This document shows positions 11,939 through 40,280 of a stretch of DNA of 64,000 bases, one piece after another. The notes under the pieces were generated by a model. It was not told where the DNA came from and ran no database searches. It saw only the letters and a list, made by a program, of their open reading frames with translations. How positions within the stretch are numbered: position 1 is the stretch's first letter; every line of letters begins with the position of its first letter. A program made the position numbers and the translations under genes. The stretch comes from a virus. The stretch spans positions 17,783 to 81,782 of the IMG/VR virus record IMGVR_UViG_3300031565_014867; one strand, written 5' to 3'.

Positions 11939-12003
11939 TTGTGTACCTCGTTGTGAAAAGGTGGTTGTCGAAGAGAACGGGACTAGACGAGACGTTGCCG
12001 AGC

Positions 12004-12675
12004 CTACTTGCTGCCCGAGGGGTAGTAGGTCTCTTTCCACTTGGCGACCAGGCCGGCACCCGCGCCGAGCACGCCCAGGCCAACGAGCGCCCACCAGGGC
12101 GGCAGGCCCGACGTCGGTTCGGGGGCCACGTCGGGCGGTCCCGTATGGTCCAACGGCTGCGGGGCCGGGTCCGGCTGAGGCTGGGGCTCCGGCTGGGGTT
12201 GCGGTTGAGGCTGCGGGCAACACCGGCGTCGGCGGAACAGTTCAGTTCGGATCGCCTGATCCAAGGCGTCGGCCGACATGGGGATATCCTGGCCGCACAC
12301 TTGGTATTGCACTTTCCCATCGGCCGACTGAATCCGGACGCACGGCACTTGTCGCGTGCTCTTCGCATAGCGGTCGCGGAAAATCGCCGTGGTCGTGGCG
12401 ATCGGATGGAAATGTGTCTGGGCCTTCAGGTGTTTCAGGCTCGGGTGCGAATCGAACCAACCCTTGACGGTCTGATACCTCGCATCGCACGGGTTGCCGA
12501 CCACGCTGATGTGCCACTTGCCCTGATCGGCGGGCAGGTCGATCACACGCTCTTCGGCGTGCAGAACGCCGTAGGCCGCATCGGCCTTCAACTCGTCAGC
12601 GGAATCGTCCGCCCAACAAGGGCAGGCTGTGGCGACAATCGCCAACAGCATCAGGGAACACAAAACTCGGATCAT
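12004..12675 (-). CDS. Exported protein with a possible degenerate thioredoxin-like domain, PQ linker and C-terminal TM anchor
   Basis: Signal peptide ending CWA; RYAKSTRQVPCVRIQ; (PQ)n; WWALVGLGVLGAGAGLV. Confidence 0.65.
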   Translation of the reverse strand: MIRVLCSLMLLAIVATACPCWADDSADELKADAAYGVLHAEERVIDLPADQGKWHISVVGNPCDARYQTVKGWFDSHPSLKHLKAQTHFHPIATTTAIFRDRYAKSTRQVPCVRIQSADGKVQYQVCGQDIPMSADALDQAIRTELFRRRRCCPQPQPQPQPEPQPQPDPAPQPLDHTGPPDVAPEPTSGLPPWWALVGLGVLGAGAGLVAKWKETYYPSGSK

Positions 12676-13271
12676 CGGTCCCTCCAATACGGTAAGGGTG
12701 GAGCGGGAGAATACACGGGCGTTGTCGCCCACGAATTGCTGTTGAACCATTCAGCGAGGAACGTCTTGCGCGGAACCCACTTGATCTGGCGGGGATCGTT
12801 GTTGTCGAGGATGCCGGCCCACTGGTCGTCGAAGTGGACCAGACAAACCATGTGCCGGCCGCCGAGAACCGTCACGCCGCAGCCTCGCCGGGTTGAGCAC
12901 GCCCATTCAAGAAAACCCACGTCATCGCCGCCGACCGTGTACGCGAAGCGGACGCCTTCTCGCTCCATCTTGTCGGCCAGACCGGCCGCCCATTCACCGT
13001 TGCCGTAGGTCCGCCGCCAGTAGTCGGCCATCGCGTTGCGGCCCTGCCATCGGAACAGCGAGATCATCGAGGCGTGGACGCACGAGCCCTCACCCTCGTT
13101 GCCTCGCCAGTTGGCCTGACGCAAGGCGACCGGCAGGTTGACGGTCGGGTATTCGATCGGCGTGGTCGGGGCCGGGCGATTGTCTACCGGCTCGTTGTCG
13201 AGACGGAGTTCGATACCGTCGCAACCCGCGACCGCGGCCAAGAGCAATGCGATGACGGACAGTCGCTTCAT
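12672..13271 (-). CDS. Papain-like (C39-like) cysteine peptidase lipoprotein
   Basis: Lipobox AVAGC; EGSCVHAS (Cys), GRHMVCLV (His), ILDNN (Asp/Asn). Confidence 0.72.
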   Translation of the reverse strand: MKRLSVIALLLAAVAGCDGIELRLDNEPVDNRPAPTTPIEYPTVNLPVALRQANWRGNEGEGSCVHASMISLFRWQGRNAMADYWRRTYGNGEWAAGLADKMEREGVRFAYTVGGDDVGFLEWACSTRRGCGVTVLGGRHMVCLVHFDDQWAGILDNNDPRQIKWVPRKTFLAEWFNSNSWATTPVYSPAPPLPYWRDR

Positions 13272-13864
13272 TTGAGCCTCCAGGGTTTCAGCAGGATTCC
13301 TCGTCGCCGCTCCGTCCGAACCAATCGGTTTGGGCTCCAACGGCCAGCGTGGTCGGTGCGGAAAACGCCGACACGGGCGTGCGCCGCTGCGCAATACTCG
13401 GAGCAAAACAAACTCGAAAGGTCTTGCCGGCGGAGTTTCGATTCGAGCCACGACCATCCGATCCCGCCTGCTCGGAAAGCGCCAATCGCGTCATAGTCCT
13501 TGCCGATGTACTCCAGCAGGAACGCACTGAGCCGCTTGCTCTCAAACGGATACAGCGGTCGGTAGAGCGGGTAATGCCACACCTTGCCGCCATACGCTTG
13601 CACACACTCGTCGAGCCGGTGAGCCTGTGTGCCCCAGACCGGCTTTCTTTGAATCGCGCACGACAGTTCTGAGAGCGATGTCGATTCAAACAGCAGCAGT
13701 TCGCCGTCGTGCTCGCCGACGATGCCGACGTGGCTCAAACTCCAGAACGGGATGCCATACGTCGCCAGGTTGATCCCGACGCTCAGCCAGCTATCGCCGC
13801 TGAAACCGATGATCTCACCGGCTTTCGGCGTGGGCCGAGGCTTCTTGGATAGAGAGAGGATCAT
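13268..13864 (-). CDS. Permuted papain-like NlpC/P60 (YiiX/YebB-like) amidase
   Basis: GEIIGF, SHVGIV (His), FES, GKDYD, FCSEYC (Cys) in permuted order. Confidence 0.8.
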   Translation of the reverse strand: MILSLSKKPRPTPKAGEIIGFSGDSWLSVGINLATYGIPFWSLSHVGIVGEHDGELLLFESTSLSELSCAIQRKPVWGTQAHRLDECVQAYGGKVWHYPLYRPLYPFESKRLSAFLLEYIGKDYDAIGAFRAGGIGWSWLESKLRRQDLSSLFCSEYCAAAHARVGVFRTDHAGRWSPNRLVRTERRRGILLKPWRLK

Positions 13865-14123
13865 GGGCGCGTGTCCGAACGGACGCTTGGTGGGCGAATA
13901 ACCCGCCGGGGCCGAGCTGCGCTTCGGCAAGTCCGGCGGGGAATGGATGGAGCCCGACAAACGGATTCGCTGCCGGACTACCCGATCGGCGCGTTTGATG
14001 GCCGCACCGGGTTTTGTAAGAAGGTGGGAGGAGGGCAGAAAAAGCTAGGTGGGAGGCCCGATGGGCTGGTAGGTCCATCGGGCAAACCCGGCTTTGGCGA
14101 GGTGAGCCGTGCCGGGGGAGTCG

Positions 14124-14669
14124 TCAGTCAGTGTCAGCCGACGTGGTGCCGGCTGCGACGATCGCCTCAACGATTCGATGGTTGATGCGATCGACGATCG
14201 CCTCGTAGTCGTCGATTCCTTCGAGTTCTTCAACGATGACTTGGGAAATGGACTGGCCCAGCGCCAGCACGGTCGGCTTCGAGAGGAGGGCACCGAGGTT
14301 CTGCTCGATGGAGTGCGCCGACTTGACAAGCCGCTCCACGGTCAGCAGGGCCGTATTGATCGGCCCGAAGGCCGCAATCAGGTCGCCGTCGTTCTTGACC
14401 TTGTTGAACCGTTCCTCGATCAACATCCGGGCCAACGCGATCTCGTCCCTGAGCGACTTGATCTGCTCGTGCTCCGACAACTGGGCCAGTCGCATCCGAT
14501 GCTGCGCCTTCGTCAGAAGGTACAGTCGCTTATCCTGCACCGCTTCCTTGTCCCGGCCCCCGTGGACGCGGCACCGATCGCAGCCGGGCTCGGCCACGTT
14601 CAAGCACTGCCCTTCGGGAGCAGCGCCCGTGCATCGTCTCGGGTCAGCCGGGTCTTTGACGCGGTGCAT
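14124..14669 (-). CDS. Candidate terminase small subunit (C-C-C-H zinc knuckle ending RCRVHGG, then helical)
   Basis: RRCTG..QC..RCRVHGG and SLRDEIALAR; first gene of the late operon. Confidence 0.55.
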   Translation of the reverse strand: MHRVKDPADPRRCTGAAPEGQCLNVAEPGCDRCRVHGGRDKEAVQDKRLYLLTKAQHRMRLAQLSEHEQIKSLRDEIALARMLIEERFNKVKNDGDLIAAFGPINTALLTVERLVKSAHSIEQNLGALLSKPTVLALGQSISQVIVEELEGIDDYEAIVDRINHRIVEAIVAAGTTSADTD

Positions 14670-14700
14670 ATTGTGTCTCGTTTGGTTCCGAACGAAAGCC

Positions 14701-14746
14701 TCTACTAAAGTAAAGTGATTTGAAGGGGGGTTTGTTTCAAGAATCT
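14701..14746 (-). promoter_or_regulatory. 46-bp motif, copy 1 (head of the late operon)
   Basis: Minus strand AGATTCTTGAAACAAACCCCCCTTCAAATCACTTTACTTTAGTAGA; two more copies at 39.2-39.4 kb. Confidence 0.75.
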
Positions 14747-14862
14747 GAAGATTATCGCTGATTCGCGGCGATTCGCGGAGACTCCACGGAGAAGCACGCA
14801 AGAAGAGAAACTGCCGCGTCGGAAGTCCAACGCGGCAGCGCGATGAAGGTGCGAACTACGAG

Positions 14863-15576
14863 CTACGAAGCCCGAAGCAGAACACGGCGGACGGCTGCCC
14901 GCGTGAACGGTTTCTTTGCCGTGGTGCGGTGGCCTTGCTCGTTGAGCCACTCGGCGATCTGTTGGAACGACTCGCCGGACACGCGCCGATCGCGGATCGC
15001 CGGCACGAGGAAGTCGTAGGCTTCTCGTGCTCGCTTGGATCGCTTCTCGGCGGCCACCTGTGTTGCCTTCGCTTGCCCTTTCGCCCGAAGGTGTTCCCGA
15101 TCCTGCCAATGATCGCAACGGGCTGAACCGAGCCGCACGCCACGGGCTTTGGCCGCTTTCAAGGCTGCCTTGGTCCGCGCACTGATGCGTTGGGCTTCGT
15201 CTTCGGCGACGGCTGCCAGGATGTGGATGGTCAGTCGATTGGCGTTTGGGTTGTCGCAGGCGACGAAGTCGACGCCGCTGTTCATCAGCCCGGCTGTAAA
15301 ATGGACGTTGCGTGCCAGCCGATCCAACTTGGCAATAACGAGCGTGGCCCCCGAGAGCTTGGCGTGGGCGATCGCCTTGGCCAGTTCGGGTCGATCCGCG
15401 CGCTTGCCGGTTTCGACCTCGGTGTACTCGGCGAGAATCTCGCCATCGTTCCGACTGGCGAAACTCCATACTTCCGCTTGTTGGGCTTCCAGGCCGAGTC
15501 CGCTGCGGCCTTGCTTCCTGGTACTGACCCGGTAGTACGGGATGATCTCCTGTTTGCTCTTCTGTTGCGTTACCAT
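14863..15576 (-). CDS. Serine recombinase (resolvase domain plus short recombinase/HTH domain)
   Basis: YYRVSTRKQGRSGLGLEAQ, RPELAKAI, LVIAKLDRLARN, ISARTKAAL..G. Confidence 0.92.
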   Translation of the reverse strand: MVTQQKSKQEIIPYYRVSTRKQGRSGLGLEAQQAEVWSFASRNDGEILAEYTEVETGKRADRPELAKAIAHAKLSGATLVIAKLDRLARNVHFTAGLMNSGVDFVACDNPNANRLTIHILAAVAEDEAQRISARTKAALKAAKARGVRLGSARCDHWQDREHLRAKGQAKATQVAAEKRSKRAREAYDFLVPAIRDRRVSGESFQQIAEWLNEQGHRTTAKKPFTRAAVRRVLLRAS

Positions 15577-15609
15577 TTGTTCCTCGCGATGCGTCGTCAA
15601 GATGGTCCG

Positions 15610-15645
15610 TTTCCTTCAGCTTGCTCGATCCTCGGCTGAAGTCAA
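15610..15645 (-). promoter_or_regulatory. Recombinase promoter/operator with CTTCAG/CTGAAG half-sites
   Basis: Minus strand TTGACTTCAG..CTGAAGGAAA, shared with the 28.9 and 33.4 kb sites. Confidence 0.5.
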
Positions 15646-15950
15646 GTCGACATTATCAGGGCGAACGCTCGCTCAGAACTGCGCACCGCCTCACTGGTTC
15701 CCGAAGACGAGAGAATTCGGCGATGACGGAGCAGGACACTGAGTCATGCAGCCAGATTGGGGGGGGCTTGAGGCCGCAAGGTCGCGAGATTGAGGACGGT
15801 GGTGAGTGGACCTGGTGGTCTCGCCCAGACAATGCCGCGGATGTACGAGAGCGCCGGCATCGGTTATCATTTCGGGGTCCAAATGTCGTTGCTTCGTTTC
15901 AAGGAATTGCACCCCAGCTTGGGGGGCCATAGGTTCATGGGCGCATTCCG

Positions 15951-18900
15951 ATGAGTGCCGACACGTTTCCCTTCGAGATCCATTCCAACCTTGAACTGGG
16001 TGCCCTTCCTCCGCAATTGCGGGCGCTTAGCCGGTTCGTCGCCGAACGCTCAGAGACTGCCCACCCTTGGGGAAACCTTCATGTTACCTGGTCCAGTGAC
16101 TGGTCAGATCTGACCCTTCTTGCGTACTTCGGGCAAGTGCTGCGACTATGCCAGAGGCGATTCGCCCAGGTCAACCTTCAACTGGATGGCCCGATGGTCA
16201 AGAAGATCCCGTTCTTGTGGAAGTGTGGGTTCTTTGACTGCGTGCGGGCCAACCGCGTCGGGAGCATTCTGGAATGCTTCCCGGATCCTTGGCGCCATCG
16301 CCCAGACACCGACCTCGTCCGCGCCAACTACACGCCTCTCGTCATGTTGGATGTCGCTCCAGTTGGCCAAGGTGACACCAAGCCCCAGTTCAGAGACCGT
16401 CAGGTGACCGACTGCATTAACGATTGGGACGTCGGTCTCCGTTCCACCGCATCTTTTCCTGTGGTGCGCAACGCCGATGCTATCCACTCGCGAGAGTATC
16501 TTTACTTGTTATTGTGGGAACTCCTGAATAATGCATACATCCACTCCGAAACTCATCATGTCACGCTCGCGGGGCAGATATTTTTGTCGCAAGAACACAT
16601 CGCCGCCTTGAAGAACCTTGCCGATGATATCAGCAACGATTATCTGCTCCAATCCGCGGGCTCAGTCCCTTCGCTTCTCGACGCGTTGGCAGTGCAGCAC
16701 AGAATCGAAGTACAACACACCCAGTTGACGGCTCGCCGTACCTGGTTGAAAAACCACAGAGATCGGTCTTTCCTGTTGCTTAGTTGCACCGATTCCGGAA
16801 TGGGTATCCCGCAATCTCTGAAAAGGTCGGAGGTCGTCGCAGAGCAAGAAACCGATGGTCACGCGCTGGCGCGTGCCTTCAGTCCGTGGACATCGACGCG
16901 ACGGAATGATCCTACTTTGTATGACGTTCACGGGTTGTCGCAGATCCTCCGACTCGTGGAAGAGTACGACGGATATTTGTTCCTGCAAAGTGGTGCCGCG
17001 TACCTAGAGTTCACGCGCACTACGCCGTTGTCCGATGGACAACGACTCCCCGAAGAGAGGGTCCTAGACGGCTCGCTATTTCAAATCCTTCTACCTCTGA
17101 GCGCGGAGCCTGCCAGTCGGCCGGTTCGCAAGTGGATGGCGCCCGGCCACTCGCCGGGATCCCCGGAGCCCGCCGATCCCGAACACAGAAGTGTCTTCGT
17201 GGTCGGCGAACTACGGCGTGCCGGAATCGACGTTCCCGTACGAGAGGAGGACTGGACGCGAGCGGCCGACGTGGTGATCCGTTGTGCTGATGCGATCACT
17301 ACCGATCCCCTATTTCTCGATCTTGTCCGGATGCCACACGATCACCAGTTCCTGAGTTTCCTTTTGCGAAGCGTCCGCCGCACCAGACTCTCGCACGGCG
17401 TTGTAGTGGTCAACGCGTCGCGTGAGTTTCTAGCGATTGCCAAGAACATGCAGAGGATCGATCTGGGTGACATCGCGGATGAACAAGTGAAGAGTTGCGC
17501 CGAACTAGATCGAGACTTGGCCCTGGCACTCAGCCGAGGAGAGATCGGGTGCTTGCCGCTGTTGCTGCCTTTCTTGGCACTCGCTGACGACGGAAGTCCC
17601 GCGGGTGTTCTGTGGCTTGGACTAGGTTGCTACGCACCGACACGGCGACGGGCAGTGGAAATCGCCTTGAACTATCTCCTGGGCTCGGAGGGAGCTGAGT
17701 TCAGTTGGAAAGAACTGTTTGAAATCGCTACTGCCCACGATCCAGTAGAAGGTCTTACCGAACAGGAATTTGGCTTACTCTTTGACGCTATCGTTCGCTG
17801 CAATCGGTCATTACTCGCCCCGGTTGCTGGCGGATGTCGCTCGGTGTTGACATCTTACGATGTGGAGTACGTTTCACTGGCCTCACTCCGAAAGGAAGTG
17901 GAAAACCTGATACCGCGGATGGAACACCAAAAGGCTCGCGACCAGCAGGACTTCCTCTATAGTCTCGCCTGGCACCCGCCCGAGCGGCGTTTCCGTAAGC
18001 GCTACTATCGTACTTGGCCTGTGCTCGCGGATGAGCACTATCGTCACATCTGCGCGCGATTGCTCGTGCAACAAGCCTATGAGACTCTGGGAGACGTGGT
18101 TGCGGCGGCCCGCGCCGTCGTTTGCGCCACGCCCTCGGCAGGGCTGCTGGGACGAGAGGTCGCTGCGATTCTCGGTACGGCCTTCTACGAAGTCCCGAGC
18201 ATTTATGAGATCGATCATCGGGATTGGATCCCACGGCTCAACGGACCCGCGATTGTGGTCGACGACGTTCTCGACACTGGTACACTTACACAGCAGTTGG
18301 TGCAGTACCTACAAAAGGTCGGGGCACACTGTCCCTGTGTCCTCACACTCCTGGAAAACGCGGAAACAGCGCAAGAAAGGCCCAGCCTGCCCCTCGTTCT
18401 GAAGGGGAGTGCCATCGACCTCGGTATTCCGACGACGGAAGAAGTGGCAAGGGCTATCGAGTCTCAAGGCTACTTTGAGGTCGATCCGCACACACTCGAC
18501 CCGCTTCCTCCCAGAACCTCGGCTCGTGATTCCCTGTCCAGGGAAACGCGCCGGCGCCTCGAAACGCTGGCGCATGAAAAGGCCATCTTCAGCGGGCATA
18601 TCGTGCATGGAGACCACCACTACAACATGTACTTCAGCCTGCGCGATGCTCTCGCGTCACCGACAGCGCGCGATGAAATCCTGACATGGGTGCTCGACGA
18701 GATCCGCGCGTTTGCCCGACAAGCACAGAAGCAAGGGGCTCACGCGATTACGCTCGTATATCCGTACTACTCGCCCGTCTACAGACTAGTCTCGCGAATA
18801 CTCGCTCGTTGGTACCAAGAAGCCGCAGTTGGCGTCGAACTTCGCTGCCTGGTGGCCAAGCCATGCCAATTGAGTGGAACTCGCATCGGGTATCAACTGG

Positions 18901-20759
18901 CCGATGTAACAAACCGCGGGACGCGCGACCTAGAACATGCCGTGTTCTTGGATGACGGCATTGCCTCCGGTGGCACCATGTCGGCGGTCCTGGACGAATT
19001 GGTTTCGCGCAACGCACGCGCCGTCGTGGCTCTAATACTATTTGACCGAATCGGCCTTCAGCCGCGACGCCATCTGCGCAGTATCCGCTCATACCGTACG
19101 CCAAACGGCCGCTCCCTGTCGTTTTCGTTTCGCACTCTTGTTTCGATAAACGTGCGGTCGCACTATGTCAACAACTGCCCTGAGTGCCTGTTGGCTCGGG
19201 ACATACTCGGACATGCTCGTTTGCACCCGGGCTTCCTTTCTACTGGAACGGCGACTCTCGAATCTCTCCTGGCGAGGACCATTGTGAGTTCTGAAAGTGT
19301 CCATATAGCCTCCCGGCTCGGGGCTGAGGATGTTCTTTCCGTACTCAGTTTCCGGCACGCGGTTCTCTCGGACATGCCAAGCCCCCAAGAGATCGAAAGG
19401 AGCTTGGCTGGCCGTGCAGGCGCTCCCCGGCTAGAGTGCCTCGCGACCGTGTTGTCCGATCCCAAGCTGTTCCGGCAGATCACGGATCACGAGGCCTGTG
19501 AGCGATGGATGACCGAGGACATCGCCGACCCATCTGTGGCTCCTGACTTCCGTGCCCGCTTTGTCCTTCACTTGGGCGCATGTGCTGACAGGAGCTTCGC
19601 GCGGGGATACGTTACGGAAGGTCTTCCTCAAGCCTACATTCGTTTGGCTGGCCGGCCGGAAGCCAAGTGTGACGGCTCGCTCAACCGTTACTTCAATGCG
19701 CACCCGATCGAATTCCTTGCGGTGGCGGCGGCCCTCTACTCGCTTGCTGACCGAGTTGGCCGCGACAAAGAGGCACCAGTAGCATGTCTACAAGGATGGA
19801 AGACAGCGCTAGGTTCTGGCTCGGAGATGAATACCGAGGCCAATCTCTATACGTTCCATTTGGAAACCCTATTTGATCCAGAATCTGAACTCCCCGTGAA
19901 AGAGGCGGAGCACTTGGTCGCGAACTTTGCCGGCAGTTTCTCGCACCACGGTGACAGCTTCGCCGTGCGCATGTCGCGTTGCCGATTGGCAGTGAATACC
20001 CATCTCGCTGGCGTTGCCTGCGAGCAGATGCCACCGGAAATGTTCAGCGTTCTAACCGATATGGTCAGACGCACGCAGGACCACTTCAAGGTCTGGCCGT
20101 TCGGAAAGGACGAACGAGACGAGATAAGGGAGGCTGAGGCGCGATGGCAGGAGGATCGCGATGGCACCATCTTGGCAACGGTCATCAGCCGCCATTTTCT
20201 CTCGGAAATGCCTGCCACACGCCCGGCAACAATTGACCGACTCCTCGCCCACCTTGCACCACGCTTGGGTTACATCCTTGGTAAGGCCATCGCCGATTAC
20301 CGTACCCGCACACGGGCACCTGTTAATGTGCATAATGAGTTCGAATCCAACACATCAGAAGACAGCCGCGTACTCGGCACCTCCTTCTATTTGTGGAGGG
20401 TGTTGTCGAACCTGCTCGATAATGCACAGGAAGCGTGGAACAGGCGCCGCGGAGAGGAGAGCGGCGCCCCGACGCCCGACTTGGCAGTGCGGATACTTGT
20501 GCGCCCCGTGCCGCCCCACCGGCTCGCCATTGAAGTCCGAGACAACGTCCCCTGCGAAGATCAAGACGTTGAGGGGTTCTTTGTGCCTGGCAGTGCATTG
20601 GCCACGCACCGGTCTGAGATCGTGAACTGGGGTGGGGCTTTACGGGGAGACAAACTTCCCAACGGTTGGAAACGTATTGTGGTAGAACTGAGAACGCTCG
20701 ACGTTGAGCGCCCATTGCAGGACCCTGAAGATGAGAATCCCCAAGCTGCTTCTATGTGA
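15951..20759 (+). CDS. Giant multidomain protein: STAS-like, HATPase, STAS-like, two type I PRTase domains, C-terminal HATPase (putative defence sensor)
   Basis: WELLNNAYIH/TDSGMGI/HGL; IVVDDVLDTGT and VFLDDGIASGGT PRPP loops; CPEC; SNLLDNA/IEVRDN. Confidence 0.78.
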   Translation: MSADTFPFEIHSNLELGALPPQLRALSRFVAERSETAHPWGNLHVTWSSDWSDLTLLAYFGQVLRLCQRRFAQVNLQLDGPMVKKIPFLWKCGFFDCVRANRVGSILECFPDPWRHRPDTDLVRANYTPLVMLDVAPVGQGDTKPQFRDRQVTDCINDWDVGLRSTASFPVVRNADAIHSREYLYLLLWELLNNAYIHSETHHVTLAGQIFLSQEHIAALKNLADDISNDYLLQSAGSVPSLLDALAVQHRIEVQHTQLTARRTWLKNHRDRSFLLLSCTDSGMGIPQSLKRSEVVAEQETDGHALARAFSPWTSTRRNDPTLYDVHGLSQILRLVEEYDGYLFLQSGAAYLEFTRTTPLSDGQRLPEERVLDGSLFQILLPLSAEPASRPVRKWMAPGHSPGSPEPADPEHRSVFVVGELRRAGIDVPVREEDWTRAADVVIRCADAITTDPLFLDLVRMPHDHQFLSFLLRSVRRTRLSHGVVVVNASREFLAIAKNMQRIDLGDIADEQVKSCAELDRDLALALSRGEIGCLPLLLPFLALADDGSPAGVLWLGLGCYAPTRRRAVEIALNYLLGSEGAEFSWKELFEIATAHDPVEGLTEQEFGLLFDAIVRCNRSLLAPVAGGCRSVLTSYDVEYVSLASLRKEVENLIPRMEHQKARDQQDFLYSLAWHPPERRFRKRYYRTWPVLADEHYRHICARLLVQQAYETLGDVVAAARAVVCATPSAGLLGREVAAILGTAFYEVPSIYEIDHRDWIPRLNGPAIVVDDVLDTGTLTQQLVQYLQKVGAHCPCVLTLLENAETAQERPSLPLVLKGSAIDLGIPTTEEVARAIESQGYFEVDPHTLDPLPPRTSARDSLSRETRRRLETLAHEKAIFSGHIVHGDHHYNMYFSLRDALASPTARDEILTWVLDEIRAFARQAQKQGAHAITLVYPYYSPVYRLVSRILARWYQEAAVGVELRCLVAKPCQLSGTRIGYQLADVTNRGTRDLEHAVFLDDGIASGGTMSAVLDELVSRNARAVVALILFDRIGLQPRRHLRSIRSYRTPNGRSLSFSFRTLVSINVRSHYVNNCPECLLARDILGHARLHPGFLSTGTATLESLLARTIVSSESVHIASRLGAEDVLSVLSFRHAVLSDMPSPQEIERSLAGRAGAPRLECLATVLSDPKLFRQITDHEACERWMTEDIADPSVAPDFRARFVLHLGACADRSFARGYVTEGLPQAYIRLAGRPEAKCDGSLNRYFNAHPIEFLAVAAALYSLADRVGRDKEAPVACLQGWKTALGSGSEMNTEANLYTFHLETLFDPESELPVKEAEHLVANFAGSFSHHGDSFAVRMSRCRLAVNTHLAGVACEQMPPEMFSVLTDMVRRTQDHFKVWPFGKDERDEIREAEARWQEDRDGTILATVISRHFLSEMPATRPATIDRLLAHLAPRLGYILGKAIADYRTRTRAPVNVHNEFESNTSEDSRVLGTSFYLWRVLSNLLDNAQEAWNRRRGEESGAPTPDLAVRILVRPVPPHRLAIEVRDNVPCEDQDVEGFFVPGSALATHRSEIVNWGGALRGDKLPNGWKRIVVELRTLDVERPLQDPEDENPQAASM

Positions 20760-22374
20760 GGACGATATCTGGGAACGTGAAAACCTTCCAGGGATCATCG
20801 AGTCCTCTTGGAAGGACATGTTTGCCGGTGAACAAGTCGAGGTCCACGGTTGCTCCGATGTTGCCCGCGAGGACCGGCCACGTCCCCCGATTATTCCCCT
20901 TGACAAAGTCGGACAATACGATGCTCTTCTGCTCGATATTTGGTGGGGAAAACCCAGTTCCGGGTCACCTCATGGCGTCGAGATTGCCGAGACAGTACGT
21001 CGGCGCTATCCGGAAATGCCAATTATCGTGTTCTCACGACACGTCTCGCTTGAAGACTTTCAATCTCTGATACCTCACGGCATCGCAGGATATCTGACCA
21101 AAACCGATCCCACGGCCCAAACCTGGTGTGCCGAAATCCACCGCGTCTTGGAAACCACTGGCCGCGAACGTTCCGGTCACCCTCTGTATCAACTCCTCAG
21201 GCATCTGCTAGCTGAAACCCCCAACGCCTGGTGTCGGAATGAGGTCGACCAAGCTGCCTCTGAAGTCTGGCGTCATGAGAACCCTTATCAGAAATGGGAA
21301 CAGTTTTGGGGAGTGTGGGTGCCGTATTTGGGGCAAAAACGCATCAACATCCCCTGCGACGACATCGCTCGGTTCTTTGCCAAGGAAGAACTCCTAACGA
21401 TCTCTGTAGGCGAAGCCTTGCGCGGACATCTGGAACATGTCTTGCATGTGTATTTCACCGGGTACATTATAAGCCATGTCGCACCGGGGTTTCGCGATCA
21501 TGTACTGAACGCCGTTCGCTATCTTCTAAAGGAAGATTATCGCGAGGACCAGACGGAAGCCTATTGGGACATGTTCCAAGCAAGTTGGCTCGTCGCCGCC
21601 ACGCTGCACGACGCCGCCTATCCGCTAGAGATTCTCCCTGACGTCGTGCATGAAGCATCCCAGATTCAAGACATGTTTCCCTTTGCGCAACTCACTCCCA
21701 CCGTTCCGTCTGTGGCTCCTTCGGGCGTAGCGTGGAACAGTACGGAGGGGCGAGCGGCACGGGATGCGTTTCGTTTTGTTCTTGACCGCCTCTACGACAA
21801 TACGAGTGCCCTCCGCTTTGTGCAAGCGAACGCATTGTTCTCCGACGGGAAGGTACAGCGGTTCAACCATGGTGTCGCTTCTGGCGCATGCTTCATGAAG
21901 GAAGCTCAAAAATGGGGTGACCTTCCCAATTCGCTGCCATTGGTGTTCCTTCAATGGGCCGCCACAGCCATGGCCCTCCATGCCTTGAAACATGCTGCGG
22001 AGCCAAACGGCGTGTGCATTGCTCTCCAGCGAGATCCTTTGTCGTTCCTGTTGGCTTTGTGTGACGAGTTGCAGGTGTGGAATCGCAGTCGTCCCGATGA
22101 GACACCAACGTCATCAGATTTCCGTCGCGTCGATTTGCACGCAATGGAATTTGACGGCAACAAGCTCTCTGCCACCATTGAATACGATTTGTTTCCACTG
22201 GTTGATACACATCGACAGAAGAAGGCTGTAAATGCGATCACAAGCCGTCTCAGCAAAGACCAGCGTTTAATGAAGATCTATCTTAAGCCGGAACCACTAG
22301 GAGTAGAGATTCTGAGCCGGATACGGGATCCATTCACCGAACTGCCGCCGATCCTGCTGGGCGATGCTGATTGA
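20731..22374 (+). CDS. Receiver (REC) domain fused to an HD-superfamily phosphohydrolase
   Basis: LLLCEDD, LLLDIW, IIVFS, YLTK; HLEHVLHVY, LHDAAYP, NHG, DELQVWNR; overlaps the upstream gene by 29 nt. Confidence 0.8.
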   Translation: MRIPKLLLCEDDIWERENLPGIIESSWKDMFAGEQVEVHGCSDVAREDRPRPPIIPLDKVGQYDALLLDIWWGKPSSGSPHGVEIAETVRRRYPEMPIIVFSRHVSLEDFQSLIPHGIAGYLTKTDPTAQTWCAEIHRVLETTGRERSGHPLYQLLRHLLAETPNAWCRNEVDQAASEVWRHENPYQKWEQFWGVWVPYLGQKRINIPCDDIARFFAKEELLTISVGEALRGHLEHVLHVYFTGYIISHVAPGFRDHVLNAVRYLLKEDYREDQTEAYWDMFQASWLVAATLHDAAYPLEILPDVVHEASQIQDMFPFAQLTPTVPSVAPSGVAWNSTEGRAARDAFRFVLDRLYDNTSALRFVQANALFSDGKVQRFNHGVASGACFMKEAQKWGDLPNSLPLVFLQWAATAMALHALKHAAEPNGVCIALQRDPLSFLLALCDELQVWNRSRPDETPTSSDFRRVDLHAMEFDGNKLSATIEYDLFPLVDTHRQKKAVNAITSRLSKDQRLMKIYLKPEPLGVEILSRIRDPFTELPPILLGDAD

Positions 22375-23262
22375 ACACTTCGCAGCTTGGGCGACTTGTT
22401 CCCCATCCCTCCAATTCTCGTGCTTGTCACCGGGTCAAACGTTGCGTGACGGAGCCAATTGCGACGCAACTGGTGCTAGTGGCCCCGTGTCCAACACTCC
22501 GACCGCTGCCTCCGCAGGATATTGGCACTTCTCTGCCGCGTATGCTGGAAGTCTGCTCTCATCCCGAGCGCTGTACTTTTCGACCGCCCGGCGCTGCGCT
22601 TTCGGACCGCCGTTCATAATTTGCCGCGTCAATGGTTGGAACGGCCAAGCGCAGGCAGTCGAAAGGGCAGGGAACGGCGTGCCAACCCTACATTCGTTTC
22701 AATCGGCAAATTTGACCCCGCCCCCTTCGCCCCGCACGACCGGACTACCCGGCCCGGTACAACCCGAATGCCATCCACCCAACGGCTGGGTTTTCGTTGG
22801 GTTTGGGCGGGTTCTGCCGGCTGGTTGGCCGCAATATCGGCATGGGTCGACACCGTTGACGTCCGACAAGGGTGTCGACACAACGGGGCGAGAATCACGG
22901 CTTTCGGGGCAACCTGATTGCCGTAAGTGATTGCATAGAAATGTGTTATGTCGTCTAGTGGCGGGGTCCAGCGCGGGTATCGGGCCGAATCGGGGCGAGA
23001 ATTCCGAGAAAATGACGCGGCCGGGCCGGTTGGGGTGGTTGTCGGAAGTGTGCGGCCGGATCGGACCGGATTCGGTGTGGGTGGGTTGTGTCGGCTCCCC
23101 CAGTTATGTCTATTCGAGCGATTCGGCGGGGAAAACCTGGAACATGGCGCGCGCACCTAACCGCGCGAGAGAAAACGGAAACTCAGTCGTTGTAACTGGC
23201 GTTGTGACAACGGGTTGCGGCGCGCACATTGGATGGTTGGTCTTGTCTTGCCGCGTCGGGGA

Positions 23263-23377
23263 GAATGATTACTTCTCTGGTTTGCCCTATTTACTCATAT
23301 ATTTATTGTGTGTGTACACAGTATGTAGAAGTGTTTGCATAAAGCGATAATAGGTGAAACTAGAGAAGTAATCATTC
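23263..23377. repeat. 29-bp imperfect inverted repeat around an AT-rich core
   Basis: GAATGATTACTTCTCTGGTTTGCCCTATT (23263-23291) versus AATAGGTGAAACTAGAGAAGTAATCATTC (23349-23377); 26/29 complementary. Confidence 0.9.
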
Positions 23378-23605
23378 CGCCTACACTCGCCACCTATCGC
23401 AACCTGCCCGAACCGCCAGTCCCGCCCCAGAGCCACGACGTCGCCCGACGTCGCGTTTCGCATCCCGCCCCCGTCTCGGAACGCCCCGATTTGCCAACGG
23501 CCCTTTACGGGCCGACGTCGGCCGACGTCGGCTGCGCATGAAGAAAGCCGCCCGTTGGACGGCTTGCCGCGTTCATCCCGCCCGCGTCTTGCCGCAATGC
23601 CGCGT

Positions 23606-23932
23606 CTATCCTGCCCGCATTGCCGCGTACACTCGGCCGGCTTCAAACGAGCGTTCCCGGTGCATTGCCGCCGTAGCCCGGTGGACCACGCGCGGCCGGT
23701 AGCCGATCCGCTCCAATTCCCGGACAAGGGGCGCGCCTTCCGCGCTGGTTGCCGGTCGGCTTGCCCGGACGCAACGCCAGTAGTCGGCCCCGCTATGTTG
23801 GCCTACGTGCGCGTAGGCGTCGCAATACCGGCCGTGTTCGTCACTTGGCAACGTAGGGAAGAGCGCGAAGACTCCGCCCCCGTCCCGCCAAACCCGCAAC
23901 ACAACGGGGATAGCTTGCTGGTTGTCTGTCAT
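23606..23932 (-). CDS. Phage hypothetical protein
   Basis: VFALFP..YAHVGQHS..LVRELERIGY; last gene of the early operon. Confidence 0.75.
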   Translation of the reverse strand: MTDNQQAIPVVLRVWRDGGGVFALFPTLPSDEHGRYCDAYAHVGQHSGADYWRCVRASRPATSAEGAPLVRELERIGYRPRVVHRATAAMHRERSFEAGRVYAAMRAG

Positions 23933-24035
23933 GGTCAATCGTCCCATCGGTTCAAGGTATCCGGCGCCAACCCGGCGCTATCACGGCGCGCCGCCTGCGC
24001 CATGGCGGCGCCATCCGGGCGCGCCGGTTTCGGTG

Positions 24036-25235
24036 TCAGTCTCGGGGTTCAACAGACGACAACGTGTAGACGTCGAACCAGACGGTTTCGCAGTCAAGGC
24101 AGTACATACGTTGCGTGCAATAGTCGCCACCGAAGTCGACGGAATCCCCTTCGGTTTGGTGTGACTCACAGTTGGGGCAGAAGCCCCCTCCCATTTCGAC
24201 GTACCGCTTTGCGTGGGGCAAGGTCGAATCCTGCGCCGATTCCTGCGCGGGTTCGCGTGACGCTATGCCCAGTTCAACCAGTCTCTCGAAAGCCGCCTTG
24301 TCGGACGGATACCGCCCGCAGGAATCGCAACGTTCAACCTTCGCGCCTTCCGCCAGTCGGCCGTTCTCGACACGCGCCAGAATTCCGGGAACACCCGAAC
24401 GGAAGCGGCCGGGTTGTTCGCACTCACACACCGGGGCAGCCCCGTTAGCCAGCCCGAGAAAGGTTGCGCCAATCGTTGGGTTTCCGTATTCGTCCAGAAT
24501 CCCTGGGGTCGACATTGCCGTGTCAAGCAGACGGTCGAAGGCATAGCCCAATGCGTCGGGATCGGTGACGTCCCGATCGAAGTAGACTGGAAAACTGAGC
24601 ACGCATTCTCCCGTTGCCATTGGCTGTTCGCACTCAGACACCGGCGCAACCTGTTGCTCGAATGCCAACGCCAATATCATTACGTTGTCGAGTTGGGAGG
24701 CATCATCGGCGGCCTCTTCGTAGCTGGTGTAGACGGTGGTGGTTGCCAAGTCTTCAGTGTCGTGATCGTAGAGTATGTAGCGGCGCGTTTCCGTGGCCCC
24801 GTGTTCGGCCACTTGCGGCGGGAACATTTCGCGGAGTCGCGCGACGGTCAGCGGTGGCGTTTCAAAGTACGTTCCATCGTCGCCGTGTTTTGCGGCCGCG
24901 CGCCAATGGATCGAATCGGCGGTGACAACTACCGTTGCGGCCGATACCGATTGTAGACAACCATCGGGCCACCGGTGGTTGTCGGGTGCTTGCACCCACT
25001 CGCCATCCGAGTCAATCAGTTCGCTGGTTTCATCGTTCAGCGCGCCAAGCACCGAACCGTATTCGACGGCCGAGTCAAACAACTCGACCGCGTAGAACGT
25101 ATCATGCGCTCCCTTGAATTCTGCCGCCTTGTCGGCAACGCGAAGCAACCACGCCGCGTAGTCGGGCGTTATGTCGACGGTTGCGTACTCGAAAGCGAAA
25201 CCGTCCCCGTTGGTCAGACTGCAGGCTAGACGCAT
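24036..25235 (-). CDS. Mosaic multi-module protein with C-terminal zinc ribbons
   Basis: GGAAAG RBS; several short modules; CxC/CxxC pairs. Confidence 0.7.
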   Translation of the reverse strand: MRLACSLTNGDGFAFEYATVDITPDYAAWLLRVADKAAEFKGAHDTFYAVELFDSAVEYGSVLGALNDETSELIDSDGEWVQAPDNHRWPDGCLQSVSAATVVVTADSIHWRAAAKHGDDGTYFETPPLTVARLREMFPPQVAEHGATETRRYILYDHDTEDLATTTVYTSYEEAADDASQLDNVMILALAFEQQVAPVSECEQPMATGECVLSFPVYFDRDVTDPDALGYAFDRLLDTAMSTPGILDEYGNPTIGATFLGLANGAAPVCECEQPGRFRSGVPGILARVENGRLAEGAKVERCDSCGRYPSDKAAFERLVELGIASREPAQESAQDSTLPHAKRYVEMGGGFCPNCESHQTEGDSVDFGGDYCTQRMYCLDCETVWFDVYTLSSVEPRD

Positions 25236-25236
25236 C

Positions 25237-25950
25237 TTAGGCTTTCCTTTCCGCAATGTCCCTGATGCAAGTTTCAACGTCGCCGATCCCCAGTTGGTCG
25301 ACCAGCCAAGCTACTTGTTCGTCCAAGCCCGCGTTGTCGATCGATGCCGCCAGATTGCCCGCCGCATCGTGTACCATTTCGTCCAGGTCTTCCGGCTGAA
25401 GCCCCAGTTTGCTTGCCGTATCGACAAGCCGCGCAATGTCCTTCTGTAGCCCGTGTCGTTTCTCTTGTTGCTCCACGAATAGCCAAGCATTGAAATACTC
25501 GATATTCGTAGCGGTAACGAACACGGCCCCGCCCCCGAATTCGCCTACGCGCGGCTTGGAGCAAGTACCCGCGTAGGTGAGTGACCAACACGCATCGGGC
25601 CGAAACGCGCGTAGAAACTTCTGGACAAGATGCGCCACCCGATCCACGCAACCGTGTTCCTCGGAGTGAATCCACAAGTGTCGGCCCCGGTCTTCGTCGA
25701 CGCCTTCGGAAAACGAGTAGCCGAAGCCGACGTCCTCGCCGAAGTCGGGGTCATAATCTTCCATGTCGCGGTATGCGCGGCAGCCGATCCACGTTGCGTC
25801 CCCGGTGTCCCCATTGTCGGGCAACGTGTCTTCCGTGTACTCTGCGCCGTCGATGACGTGGACCAATTCCAGTTGGTTCTGCAGCCAGTCGACTTCCGCG
25901 TCGGTCAGATGCGTTAGCGTTTCCGAGAATTCCAAGTAGTGATCGGCCAT
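25237..25950 (-). CDS. Acidic hypothetical protein
   Basis: GGGAG RBS; CSKPRVGEFGGGAVFVTA motif. Confidence 0.75.
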   Translation of the reverse strand: MADHYLEFSETLTHLTDAEVDWLQNQLELVHVIDGAEYTEDTLPDNGDTGDATWIGCRAYRDMEDYDPDFGEDVGFGYSFSEGVDEDRGRHLWIHSEEHGCVDRVAHLVQKFLRAFRPDACWSLTYAGTCSKPRVGEFGGGAVFVTATNIEYFNAWLFVEQQEKRHGLQKDIARLVDTASKLGLQPEDLDEMVHDAAGNLAASIDNAGLDEQVAWLVDQLGIGDVETCIRDIAERKA

Positions 25951-25986
25951 TGGGGTTGTCTCCCGTTGTGTTGTGGTTTGTTGTTC

Positions 25987-26532
25987 TCAGTCGGTTACAA
26001 TCTCGAAAGGTTCAAGCGGGGTGACCACGGGGGGCAGTTGTGCGCGTAGTTGCCCGTGCGCGTCCCGTAGCATCGATGCGGCTTTGTCGGTCGATCCGTT
26101 CTCCAATTGCTCAAGCGCGCCGGTCAGCAATTCGTCGACCGGCCGCAACACGGAAGCGTCGACGACCGGTTCGCCATCCGCGTCGGTCGGGATACAAACG
26201 GGGTCCTGCCCCGCGCGGAATTCGACAATCTCGCCGTTGTATACGGCCCCGCCATCGTCGCGCCGGGTGAAGGGGATATCGTGTTCCTGCAGGAATCCTT
26301 CCAGGCTATCGAATCGGCCCCATGATGCTTGCTCGTCGCAAAGGTAGAGAACCGCCGCGCCTTCACAGTCAACGCGGGCCTGCAGCAATTCCTCGGCAGT
26401 CTTCGGGGCGAATCGCCCCGCGCCCCAATCCAGGGCCACCCCCTCGGCGTCAATCTCGCCGCATAGCCCGTCGACCAGTTGTGCGGGAACCTTGCCGCCG
26501 ATCCAGATTTGCGCCGCCATACGTTCGGACAT
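25987..26532 (-). CDS. Acidic hypothetical protein
   Basis: GGGAG RBS; co-oriented. Confidence 0.7.
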   Translation of the reverse strand: MSERMAAQIWIGGKVPAQLVDGLCGEIDAEGVALDWGAGRFAPKTAEELLQARVDCEGAAVLYLCDEQASWGRFDSLEGFLQEHDIPFTRRDDGGAVYNGEIVEFRAGQDPVCIPTDADGEPVVDASVLRPVDELLTGALEQLENGSTDKAASMLRDAHGQLRAQLPPVVTPLEPFEIVTD

Positions 26533-26552
26533 AGTGCTATTCTCCCATCGGT

Positions 26553-26762
26553 TCAAGTAATCAGTTCAAAGGTGAGACTTGCCAACCCGTCGCCCTGGAC
26601 GGTATACGCTCCGTCCGGGTGCGCGGTCATGCTGTAGCGTCGCCCCAATACGTTCAAGATGTAGCCGGCTTGTTTGTACGCTTCGCGCCGCGGGTCGCGC
26701 GCTTCCACCGTGTTCCCGCGCTTCGTTTGATAGATAGCCGCAAACGCAATTCCCGTTGTCAT
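26553..26762 (-). CDS. Small hypothetical protein
   Basis: GGGAGG RBS; fills the operon gap. Confidence 0.6.
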   Translation of the reverse strand: MTTGIAFAAIYQTKRGNTVEARDPRREAYKQAGYILNVLGRRYSMTAHPDGAYTVQGDGLASLTFELIT

Positions 26763-26778
26763 GGCGCGCCCCTCCCCG

Positions 26779-27306
26779 TTAGCAGTTACGGAAGACGTAA
26801 AGCCGGCCCGAATCGCCCGTTACGCTGTAGTTGTCGCCCATGAAAACGTCCCGCGCGAATGCGTCGTAATCGATGTAGTTCTGGACGTGTTCGGGGACGT
26901 CGTGCAAGTAGCATTCGTCAAACAACTCTTCAGCGTAGGCCCGTTCCGAATCGTATTCCCCGCAATACGCTTCCTGGAACCCGTCCGCCGTTGCGTGGTC
27001 GATTCCGACGTTATCCGCGTAGGCTGCGAACGCTTCCCCGTGTTCTTCAATCAGTGCGCCCACTTCGGCAACCCGGTCGATGTCTTCCCATTCCGAAAGG
27101 CGAATACCGCCGAAGTTTTCGTAATCGTGAATCGCCCACTCCTCGGCAATCGGTTGCCGAGACTTGGCAAGCATGTTTTCGATTGCTTCGCGTATTTCGT
27201 CGGCGTCGGTTGCGTCGATCCATTCCCCGTGGAGAATGCCCGCGTTGTAGGACGCCAAACAGGCAACGTAGATTCTGGGGGTGTCGGTGTCGGTTGTGGT
27301 TGTCAT
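26779..27306 (-). CDS. ardA: Antirestriction protein ArdA
   Basis: RIYVACLASYNAGILHGEWID, EEWAIHDYE, YCGEYDSE, YIDYDAFARD; highly acidic. Confidence 0.93.
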   Translation of the reverse strand: MTTTTDTDTPRIYVACLASYNAGILHGEWIDATDADEIREAIENMLAKSRQPIAEEWAIHDYENFGGIRLSEWEDIDRVAEVGALIEEHGEAFAAYADNVGIDHATADGFQEAYCGEYDSERAYAEELFDECYLHDVPEHVQNYIDYDAFARDVFMGDNYSVTGDSGRLYVFRNC

Positions 27307-27310
27307 GGTG

Positions 27311-27496
27311 TCAGTTCCCGTTGTGTTGTGTCGTATCTGCGGTAGTGAATTCTGTATCCGGTGGACATAGGCAAATGTCGCCGTCAACAAACGCCACCCG
27401 CTGCAATGCCCCGTTCACTGCGGTAGACGATTGGACTACCTTTCGGCCGCGGGCGGTTTCTACGGTCATGCCCTTGCGTAGGTCGGTTGCTATCAT
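27311..27496 (-). CDS. Small hypothetical protein
   Basis: AAGGAG RBS; fills the operon gap. Confidence 0.55.
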   Translation of the reverse strand: MIATDLRKGMTVETARGRKVVQSSTAVNGALQRVAFVDGDICLCPPDTEFTTADTTQHNGN

Positions 27497-27508
27497 GGTG
27501 TCTCCTTC

Positions 27509-39380: not shown

Positions 39381-40280
39381 ATGCAGGACAAAGCGGCGGA
39401 CATTCCGATCGACCAAATCACCGAGCCGAGAACCGTGCTGCGCCTTGTGGATAAGGACTCGGTGGAGTACCTCGAAATGCGCGACTCGATTGCCGCCGAG
39501 GGCTTTTGGAACTCGATCTCGGTCCGTCCGGCGAAGGACGACGGCAAGTACGAGATCATCGACGGTCTATACCGCTATACCTGCGCACGCGAGTTGAGTC
39601 TGCAGTCGATCCCCTGCATCATCAAGTACAAACTCTCGGATGATGCGGTGCTTGCCGCACAGATTCAAGCAAATGCCATTCGGCCGGAGACGAAGCCGGT
39701 GGAGTTCGCCCGGCAAATGAAGCGGATGTTGACCCGTCGTCCCGAGATGACGTTCGACGAATTGGCCCACCTGATCCACAAGTCGCCAAGCTGGGTGCGG
39801 AAGACCCTTGGGTTGCTCCGGCTCGTCCGCAAATCGCGGAAGATGGTCGATCGGGGTGAAATTGCGATCCAATCTGCCTACATGCTGGCCAAGATTCCGC
39901 ATCACCTTCAAGCGGGCTACCTCGACCCGGCTCGGACACTGCCAAGCCGGGAGTTTCGAGCGCTGGCGGCCAGTGTCATCAAACAGTACACCGAGGCGGT
40001 TAAGCAAGGGAGGATGAAAGCGTTTTGGTGTGGCGAGTTCCGGCCGCAGGCCCACCTCCGTTCGTTACGCGACATCCAATCGGAAACGCAACGGCAGGAA
40101 GTGGGCGCGTTGCTCGTCACGGCAGAGCAATGCAAAACGCCCGTGGACGGATTCTACGCCGCCTTGCGCTGGGCCATGCACTTGGATCGTCAGAGCGTCG
40201 AGGACCAAGAGCGATCCGCCCTCGCCCGTTTACGACAATCACTGCCCGAAGAAAGTGAGGTGCAACATGTGACCGACTAG
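39381..40280 (+). CDS. ParB/Srx-family protein with HTH
   Basis: SIAAEG..ISVRP..YEIIDGLYRY; ELAHLIHKSPSWV. Confidence 0.85.
   Translation: MQDKAADIPIDQITEPRTVLRLVDKDSVEYLEMRDSIAAEGFWNSISVRPAKDDGKYEIIDGLYRYTCARELSLQSIPCIIKYKLSDDAVLAAQIQANAIRPETKPVEFARQMKRMLTRRPEMTFDELAHLIHKSPSWVRKTLGLLRLVRKSRKMVDRGEIAIQSAYMLAKIPHHLQAGYLDPARTLPSREFRALAASVIKQYTEAVKQGRMKAFWCGEFRPQAHLRSLRDIQSETQRQEVGALLVTAEQCKTPVDGFYAALRWAMHLDRQSVEDQERSALARLRQSLPEESEVQHVTD

Follow-up and report, generated by a model that had tools for sequence, protein, structure and literature searches.

The 64,000-nucleotide stretch of viral DNA analyzed here (the window) covers positions 17783-81782 of the 81,782-base IMG/VR record IMGVR_UViG_3300031565_014867, which is classed as a provirus. 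It carries a two-gene island in which a giant protein containing two ATPase domains and two phosphoribosyltransferase (PRTase) domains is followed by a partner that joins a two-component receiver to an HD-type hydrolase domain. Our preferred reading is that the pair is a phosphorelay resembling the antiphage system Detocs, in which a sensor kinase switches on the HD hydrolase in a setting of genetic conflict. We give this reading a probability of about 0.45; the function, substrate, and trigger that it assigns to the pair are inferred. Transfer of a phosphoryl group from His1333 of the giant to Asp69 of the partner would be the simplest reading of the anatomy. What would be new, and is unproven, is a variant of the phosphorelay-type conflict module whose sensor and effector are unlike those of Detocs. 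The coordinates of the features discussed are collected in Table 1.

Both island genes are on the plus strand, while the adjoining genes on either side are on the minus strand. The two open reading frames (ORFs) overlap by 29 nt, or by 56 nt if the alternative TTG start of the partner is used. GC content is 0.54-0.59 in the island versus 0.60-0.64 outside it, and GC content at third codon positions (GC3) is 0.63 in the giant and 0.57 in the partner versus 0.72-0.88 in the recombinase, TerL, coat, primase, and PolA genes of the phage. Judged by GC3, the two genes are foreign to the phage in composition. No membrane-span-like hydrophobic window was found in the giant or the partner, and for this reason the giant is predicted to be a cytoplasmic protein.

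By sequence and predicted structure, the N-terminus of the partner is a CheY-like two-component receiver that is chemically complete. All 21 partner sequences keep Asp69, Ser102, and Lys124, and the acidic pair at positions 11 and 12 is largely kept. The Pfam Response_reg family scores 27.8 bits on the partner, under its cut-off of 30.2, and a profile match to YycF in the PDB has E = 1.4e-5. In an AlphaFold 2 (AF2) model of the full-length partner (predicted local distance difference test, pLDDT, 89.6), the receiver is closest to 3hv2 (Z = 15.7, root-mean-square deviation (rmsd) 2.2 over 122 residues), with 49 further receiver matches. Every listed match of this model fell on the receiver, so the output domain was folded alone, giving a model with a pLDDT of 91.8. 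Foldseek found no match for it at E <= 1e-3. In a VIA search with the same model, the 50 best chains were mostly HD or phosphodiesterase (PDE) proteins, with Z from 10.9 to 6.6. These included the PPX/GppA C-domain (6pc0; Z = 10.9, rmsd 3.3, 163 aligned), YhaM (10.4), PDE7A (10.2), and the HD hydrolase 2pq7 (10.0), and at lower scores HD-GYP proteins (7.3-7.6), SAMHD1 (7.4-7.6), Cas3-HD (7.3), PgpH (7.0), and SpoT (6.7), although a Z near 10 is by itself not decisive for helical proteins. Two-metal HD enzymes have the ligand pattern H...HD...H...H...D, and the corresponding residues of the partner (H233, H293-D294, H380, H417, and D445) are the same in all 30 sequences compared, among them distant relatives in which the domain is joined to RyR domains (HD-RyR proteins). 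Taken together, fold and motif indicate an HD-superfamily domain with a six-ligand metal site, which we regard as a putative phosphohydrolase. The partner sequence contains no GYP tripeptide.

A word-index search returned one full-length relative for the giant and, for the partner, 22 relatives in addition to the window copy. An exhaustive search of representative proteins with a profile running from the PRTase domains to the C-terminus gave 269 matches at E <= 1e-3, of which 29 also passed E <= 1e-30. Three sets of giants define the counts given below. The core alignment, which was inspected motif by motif, holds 18 full-length homologs at 22-49% identity; a set of 29 giants was scanned with Pfam; and a distant set of 72 giants of at least 1400 amino acids (aa), drawn from the best 150 of the 269 representatives, was scanned with hidden Markov models (HMMs) of the core domains. 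The core family has approximately 20 representative full-length members. Judged by these profiles, the wider group is a superfamily of 269 similar proteins, and the 72 distant giants among the best 150 share the same domain order, the matches of the four domain HMMs lying at corresponding positions.

The giant begins with a predicted GHKL ATPase whose motifs (E190/N194, D281-G283-G285, and H327-G328-L329) are invariant in all 18 core sequences and whose HMM matches 54 of the 72 distant giants at corresponding positions. Residues 261-358 match phrog_3364, a family with no assigned function (E = 6e-8), and the ESM look-alikes of this domain were all HATPase_c clusters (score 0.94), one of them with DUF4325 on 16% of its members. 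Two PRTase domains follow. In domain 1, the phosphoribosyl pyrophosphate (PRPP) loop VVDDVLDTGT lies at residues ~768-778, within an NCBIfam/Pfam match at 768-808, and HGPRT chains match it in a profile search of PDB sequences. Across the core alignment D772 never changes, whereas several members depart from the consensus at the first acidic residue and at the TG; the domain HMM matches 64 of the 72 distant giants. The loop of domain 2 (FLDDGIASGGT, residues ~999-1009) is almost unchanged in 17 of 18 core giants and is covered by Pfam Pribosyltran at 987-1034 and an NCBIfam PRPP-loop match at 987-1042. Invariant across the core alignment in this domain are H883, H890, Y937-P938-Y939, S941, D1001, G1003, G1007, T1009, R1033, C1076, and C1079, and 70 of the 72 distant giants match its HMM. 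Pribosyltran scores 27.6 bits over two stretches of the window giant, against a cut-off of 26.3. At the level of sequence, both loops are those of a type I PRTase. Among the 29 scanned giants, Pribosyltran was found in 27, HATPase_c in 16, and PRTase-CE and PRTase_2 in 10 each. A separate observation concerns the invariant histidines H883 and H890 before PRTase 2 and the CPxC motif (C1076, C1079) after it, at 18597-19187 of the window; these four residues could form a zinc site that clamps the domain.

Beyond PRTase 2, a helical stretch in the core alignment leads to an H-box, where the window giant has FSHHGDSF ahead of the C-terminal ATPase. None of the 18 core giants deviates at His1333 of this sequence, and at least 90% of the 29 giants keep the residue. 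The ATPase itself is matched by Pfam HATPase_c at residues 1481-1580 with 26.2 bits, just under the cut-off of 26.4; the best match of this family anywhere along the 16 giants that carry it has E = 6.8e-9. Its N-box asparagine (N1491) is kept in all 18 core giants, and its HMM matches 11 of the 72 distant ones. When PDB sequences were searched with the whole-protein profile, FixL chains matched weakly (E = 0.055) and the other matches were to PRPP loops only. A profile search of the PDB with the last 500 residues of four sequences gave nothing relevant, only invertase inhibitors.

Most of this anatomy had been described in an original prediction, made from the letters and translated ORFs of the window. 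The lower-GC operon opposite to its flanks, the 1602-aa giant with two PRPP loops, the kinase-like C-terminal HATPase preceded by SHH, and the overlapping partner with an intact receiver and an HD hydrolase domain all agree with the ORFs, base composition, family matches, and alignments presented here. The prediction had also placed an anti-sigma-type HATPase between STAS-like segments. Here the N-terminal ATPase stood, as a GHKL ATPase, while the STAS-like segments and the anti-sigma label could not be confirmed: HATPase_c_2 and STAS_2 each matched weakly in one of the 29 giants (E = 0.0025 and E = 0.034), and a PDB profile search with residues 1-640 of three sequences found no STAS protein, only a chance BLUF match.

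In four sequenced loci the giant gene immediately precedes that of the partner, with gaps from -29 to +9 nt. The loci are the window, L002 (a Verrucomicrobiota metagenome-assembled genome, MAG, in which the contig ends within the giant), L003 (a Bacteroidota MAG), and L004 (a Hydrogenedentota MAG), the last of which has the same ORF layout as L010, the sole locus added by a metagenome scan. No conserved third ORF was found in L002-L004. Eight further giant-partner couples were found on contigs of equal size (7009, 32980, 7683, 18063, 819474, 6534, 7692, and 9495), which suggests that giant and partner are on the same contig, not necessarily adjacent. For nine couples, the identity matrices of giant and partner were correlated with a Mantel r of 0.91, a value reached by 0 of 5000 permutations. 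The two genes thus appear to be co-inherited, although such a correlation is no proof of interaction. Because both genes are conserved across phyla, chance is excluded as an explanation of the pair.

Occurrence of the giant is sporadic. Three sets of genomes were searched with the same profile: 135 from the phylum of the Hydrogenedentota MAG, 151 around the Bacteroidota MAG, and 151 around the Verrucomicrobiota MAG. Each set yielded one genome with a giant, and that genome was the query; two further matches, of 25 bits, were to ordinary kinases. The genomic context is mixed. In the window, the pair sits in a prophage with an anti-restriction gene nearby, and the Bacteroidota copy is flanked by a C5 methylase, IS21 IstA/IstB, a Mutator transposase, and an IS3 transposase. 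The Hydrogenedentota copy has housekeeping neighbors.

In the mechanism that we propose, a temperate phage carries a self-contained, two-gene phosphorelay as cargo, with the giant as its cytoplasmic sensor kinase. The GHKL ATPase and the tandem PRTase-like domains would bind ATP and a ligand of the PRPP or nucleotide type, as their intact loops suggest, and this input would gate phosphorylation of His1333 beside the C-terminal kinase-type ATPase. From His1333 the phosphoryl group would pass to Asp69 of the partner, a step to which the intact receiver chemistry and the strict pairing of the genes point. Phosphorylation of Asp69 would then release or assemble the six-ligand HD phosphohydrolase, and the lysogen, or elsewhere the bacterium itself, would answer infection by hydrolyzing a nucleotide, a nucleotide signal, or nucleic acid. 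The setting is most likely inter-genomic conflict, because the genes have low GC3, occur sporadically and in prophage or insertion sequence (IS) contexts, belong to a family in which some giants match PRTase-CE, and have a precedent in Detocs.

That precedent is an antiphage system acting as a relay from a kinase to a receiver-effector, and it consists of the sensor kinase DtcA, the stand-alone receiver DtcB, and the receiver-effector DtcC (bioRxiv 10.1101/2023.01.24.525353). The likeness is in layout and chemistry: an accessory cassette in which a cytoplasmic, kinase-like sensor adjoins a receiver whose attached output is enzymatic and does not bind DNA, with a conserved histidine, a conserved receiver aspartate, and predicted nucleotide or phosphoester chemistry. 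The differences are in the components. Detocs has three genes, including DtcB, whereas the window pair has two and is without a buffer receiver; DtcA has tetratricopeptide repeats, whereas the window sensor has a GHKL ATPase and tandem PRTases; and the outputs given for Detocs are PNP, restriction endonuclease, TOPRIM, or transmembrane hydrolase domains, whereas the output here is an HD-fold hydrolase.

Other known proteins share single parts of the pair. RpfG and other REC-HD regulators also fuse a receiver to an HD-superfamily domain, and HD-GYP proteins align with the window output (Z = 7.3-7.6). However, the partner has no GYP motif and bears an additional alpha/beta domain at its C-terminus, its output scores higher (Z = 10-10.9) with class I PDEs, YhaM, and the PPX/GppA C-domain, and its predicted cognate kinase is not a membrane sensor. 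Going by these features, the partner is not an RpfG-type HD-GYP regulator. The giant shares the type I PRTase fold and an intact PRPP loop with ShosT, PsyrT, the retron type III effector, and OpnC of Ophion (bioRxiv 10.1101/2025.09.30.679545; PMC13712802). Those defense PRTases are free toxins, whereas in the window both PRTases lie inside a kinase-like protein of 1600 residues. HD-RyR proteins (650-800 aa, from gut Firmicutes) have the same divergent HD domain, with its six ligands and the motif LCDELQ(V/I)W(N/D)R. They differ in carrying RyR domains and further C-terminal regions, with no receiver and no giant partner seen. HATPase and REC are also among the domains of predicted systems in the legend to Fig. 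6 of DefensePredictor. Our literature search found no description of a GHKL/tandem-PRTase/kinase giant with a receiver-HD partner, with a possibly relevant 2015 paper and all supplements outside its reach.

Several results weigh against a Detocs-like conflict relay. At the level of the kinase, the H-box region has no Pfam HisKA match in the window giant or the 29 giants scanned, and the C-terminal ATPase lacks a canonical DxGxG, its G1 aspartate being kept in 13 of 18 core giants and lost in 5. Given this degenerate G1 box, autophosphorylation at the C-terminal ATPase is not assured. On the input side, PRTase domain 1 is eroded in several homologs, and on the output side the HD fold relatives (the nuclease YhaM, PPX/GppA, cyclic-nucleotide PDEs, SAMHD1, Cas3-HD, and SpoT) are too varied to name a substrate. 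With PADLOC-DB v2.0.0, the partner had no match and the giant only a chance-level match to DpdF (E = 0.053), the presence of Detocs models in that release being unconfirmed. The Hydrogenedentota copy, one of three loci with readable flanks, lies among the housekeeping genes ClpB, an Ig-domain protein, a subtilase, and phosphoenolpyruvate carboxykinase. Other relatives were absent from 2.9 million viral contigs, from 50,697 GenBank phage records searched with the window giant, and from the PLSDB plasmids searched with that protein, P0060, and P0092, and carriage by a phage is therefore so far a single case. The original prediction had called the pair a nucleotide-based defense phosphorelay. The anatomy behind this idea holds, as do the tight coupling and the prophage location, whereas a STAS partner-switch element does not figure in the confirmed parts. 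Its further proposals, that the PRTases may sense or make a nucleotide signal and that the HD enzyme may deplete nucleotides during superinfection, go beyond that anatomy. Of the checks suggested with that prediction, the PADLOC comparison for an already described system matched no model, and the neighborhoods were mixed, with a prophage, an IS/methylase, and a housekeeping locus.

The pair may instead belong to ordinary signaling, with the giant monitoring PRPP or the purine/pyrimidine supply and the REC-HD protein tuning a second messenger or alarmone in the manner of RpfG or SpoT, so that the phage carries an auxiliary metabolic regulator. REC-HD regulators are a common signaling class, and the best receiver match (3hv2, Z = 15.7) comes from an HD-domain protein. 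HD-GYP, PgpH, SpoT, and cyclic-nucleotide PDEs are among the fold relatives of the output, and both the housekeeping neighbors of L004 and the lack of a PADLOC match would be expected of such a regulator. We nevertheless consider this account unlikely. A housekeeping regulator would hardly be so sporadic as to occur only in the query genomes among 135, 151, and 151, nor would it be expected to have a foreign codon composition or prophage or IS surroundings in two of the three loci with readable flanks. The partner is without the GYP motif, and a cytoplasmic sensor of 1600 residues with two ATPases would be odd for housekeeping control.

If the phage rather than the host profits, the relay may activate an HD phosphodiesterase, and this enzyme would break down alarmones or the nucleotide signals of host immunity as a means of counter-defense or host take-over. 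The island lies in an accessory region of the prophage with the ArdA-type gene nearby, and cyclic-nucleotide PDEs match the HD model with Z = 9-10. Still, three of the four sequenced loci are on bacterial MAG contigs, with no phage genes among the ORFs scanned where flanks were readable, and the viral contigs and phage records searched held no relative. A regulated module of 6.4 kb is also large for an anti-defense gene, and we find this explanation improbable. Slightly more doubtful again is an arrangement in which the giant itself is the effector, its PRTases making a toxic or signaling nucleotide as proposed for ShosT, retron type III, and Ophion, and the REC-HD protein is a regulator, an antidote, or a signal-degrading arm. 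The almost unchanged loop of PRTase 2 in 17 of 18 core giants would suit a catalytic role, as would the PRTase-CE and PRTase_2 matches in 10 of 29 giants each. The defense PRTases are reported to form one clade and ShosT to disrupt purine metabolism (bioRxiv 10.1101/2025.09.30.679545). However, an intact receiver and a fully liganded HD site are the usual sign of an output, not of an antidote, and PRTase 1 is eroded in several members.

The kinship with PRTase-CE on which the conflict reading draws is a property of the family: the best match among the 10 giants has E = 1.5e-9, and the window giant itself reaches only E = 0.15. PRTase-CE is the family of retron type III effectors (PMC13712802), and the PRTases of retron III, ShosT, PsyrT, and Ophion are placed in one defense-associated clade (bioRxiv 10.1101/2025.09.30.679545). 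A broader and more tentative proposal, which we hold to be rather unlikely, is that the giant represents an undescribed immune sensor platform (GHKL, tandem PRTase, and kinase; approximately 270 representative clusters) that reads the PRPP or nucleotide state of the infected cell and relays a phosphoryl signal to interchangeable receiver-effectors. The HD-armed form would then be the first seen in a temperate phage, which would use it for superinfection exclusion.

The divergent HD domain extends well beyond the pair. A profile of the output domain matched 546 proteins at E <= 1e-5, of which 33 are full-length REC-HD proteins, the window copy included. The other matches listed are mostly 650-800 aa long, and several carry RyR domains; the sequenced HD-RyR examples are from Firmicutes MAGs. 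Those at L005-L009 come from such MAGs and that at L011 from a metagenome contig, and in all of these the divergent HD domain is followed by RyR, some with an extra C-terminal domain bearing the motif GxGHRF...YGxxQLIAECA. Pfam HD matched three of six distant HD relatives below threshold (E = 0.03-0.07).

To our knowledge, Detocs is so far the only validated defense system built as a true relay from kinase to receiver. A second, unrelated sensor family would, if true, make phosphorelay immunity a broader design principle, and it would indicate PRPP or nucleotide pools as a cue of infection. As the divergent HD domain is also present in several hundred HD-RyR proteins of gut Firmicutes, the identity of its substrate would annotate a large dark family.

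Table 1. Features of the island, of the phage around it, and of the HD-RyR loci. Coordinates are those of the window unless a locus is named.
Feature	Coordinates	Strand	Details
P22-type coat, scaffold, portal-region gene, gpA-type large terminase	left of island	-	
Serine recombinase, 245 aa	14863-15600	-	Resolvase domain, E = 1.7e-25; DNA invertase and integrase PHROGs
Divergent intergenic region, recombinase (-) / giant (+)	15601-15950		inverted pair CTTCAG (15614) ... CTGAAG (15636)
Giant gene (P0001), 1602 aa	15951-20759	+	ORF; full-length homologs at 26-49% identity (22-49% in the core alignment)
N-terminal GHKL (Bergerat-fold) ATPase	16443-17135	+	residues ~165-395; N-box WELxxNAxxHS, G1 box DxGxGIP, HGLxQ
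PRTase domain 1	18048-18560	+	residues ~700-870; T(P/A)SAG loop; PRPP loop VVDDVxDTG
PRTase domain 2	18561-19220	+	residues ~871-1090; GHxxxxxHHY, VYPYYSP, FLDDGIA(S/T)GGT, FDRIGxxPRxHL, CPxC
Putative phosphotransfer (DHp-like) region	19851-20300	+	H-box NFxGxYSxHxES; His1333 codon 19947-19949
C-terminal histidine-kinase-type ATPase (CA)	20301-20756	+	residues ~1451-1602
Partner gene (P0004), 547 aa	20731-22374	+	ATG at 20731 is the start in the database copy; TTG at 20704 possible
Receiver (REC)	20731-21114	+	residues 1-128; phospho-acceptor Asp69 codon 20935-20937; Ser102, Lys124, acidic pair Asp11-Asp12
Divergent HD/PDEase-superfamily phosphohydrolase domain (putative)	21421-22110	+	putative ligands H233, H293-D294 (codons 21607-21612), H380, H417, D445
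Small C-terminal alpha/beta domain	22111-22371	+	four strands and one long helix; AF2 secondary structure
ArdA-type anti-restriction gene	26779-27390	-	phrog_2059, E = 2e-41; early region, 4.4 kb downstream of island
DUF5906 primase, ParB (39381-40280), family A DNA polymerase, N6/N4 methylase, Nudix gene	farther right of island		
tRNA-Pro	end of window		
HD-RyR proteins, 650-790 aa	L005:9689-12022, L006:9554-11767, L007:4724-6676, L008:9722-12019, L009:43-2400, L011:1651-3738		

Since the recombinase and late genes lie to the left of the island and the early genes of the phage to its right, the island is cargo carried within the genome of the phage, with the recombinase on one side and the early region on the other. 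Contigs from three soil metagenome runs contain the island DNA letter for letter; one of these runs may be the source, and one X1 contig covers 14172-25303. In a sediment metagenome run of 2024 (X4), contig pieces are 90-99% alike to the flanks at 12000-15600 and 22800-27500, and a related phage is therefore present in another habitat and study. The word depth in X4 reaches up to 16 on the flanks and is 0-1.5 on the island; no contig joins across the island, and the run is hence uninformative on an island-less form.

The intergenic region between the recombinase and the giant likely holds the promoter or operator of the giant; a scan of this region with the sigma-70 consensus found no plus-strand promoter. 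On the other side of the island, the ORF at 22364-22930 was considered as a third gene and rejected, its GC content by codon position (0.59/0.63/0.59) being unlike that of the genes here and Pfam giving no match. No ORF with a coding-like codon composition was found in the approximately 1.6 kb past the island (22375-24035), where 22364-22930, 22629-23156, and 22931-23350 all fail. A frameshifted large serine integrase upstream of the giant was likewise ruled out: the ORF at 14863-15600 is a complete small recombinase, and the adjacent ORF is unrelated. The occurrence of a small serine recombinase and ParB in one phage raises the question of how this phage is maintained. In the late gene block, a 230-aa protein at 13268-13960 on the minus strand matches phrog_1128 ('enoyl-CoA hydratase/carnithine racemase-like', E = 2e-11) and may have a crotonase/ClpP-type fold. 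A database protein of 827 aa, P0052, is 98.8% identical to residues 1-818 of the giant (15951-18404) and probably represents that gene, truncated where a contig of another assembly ends.

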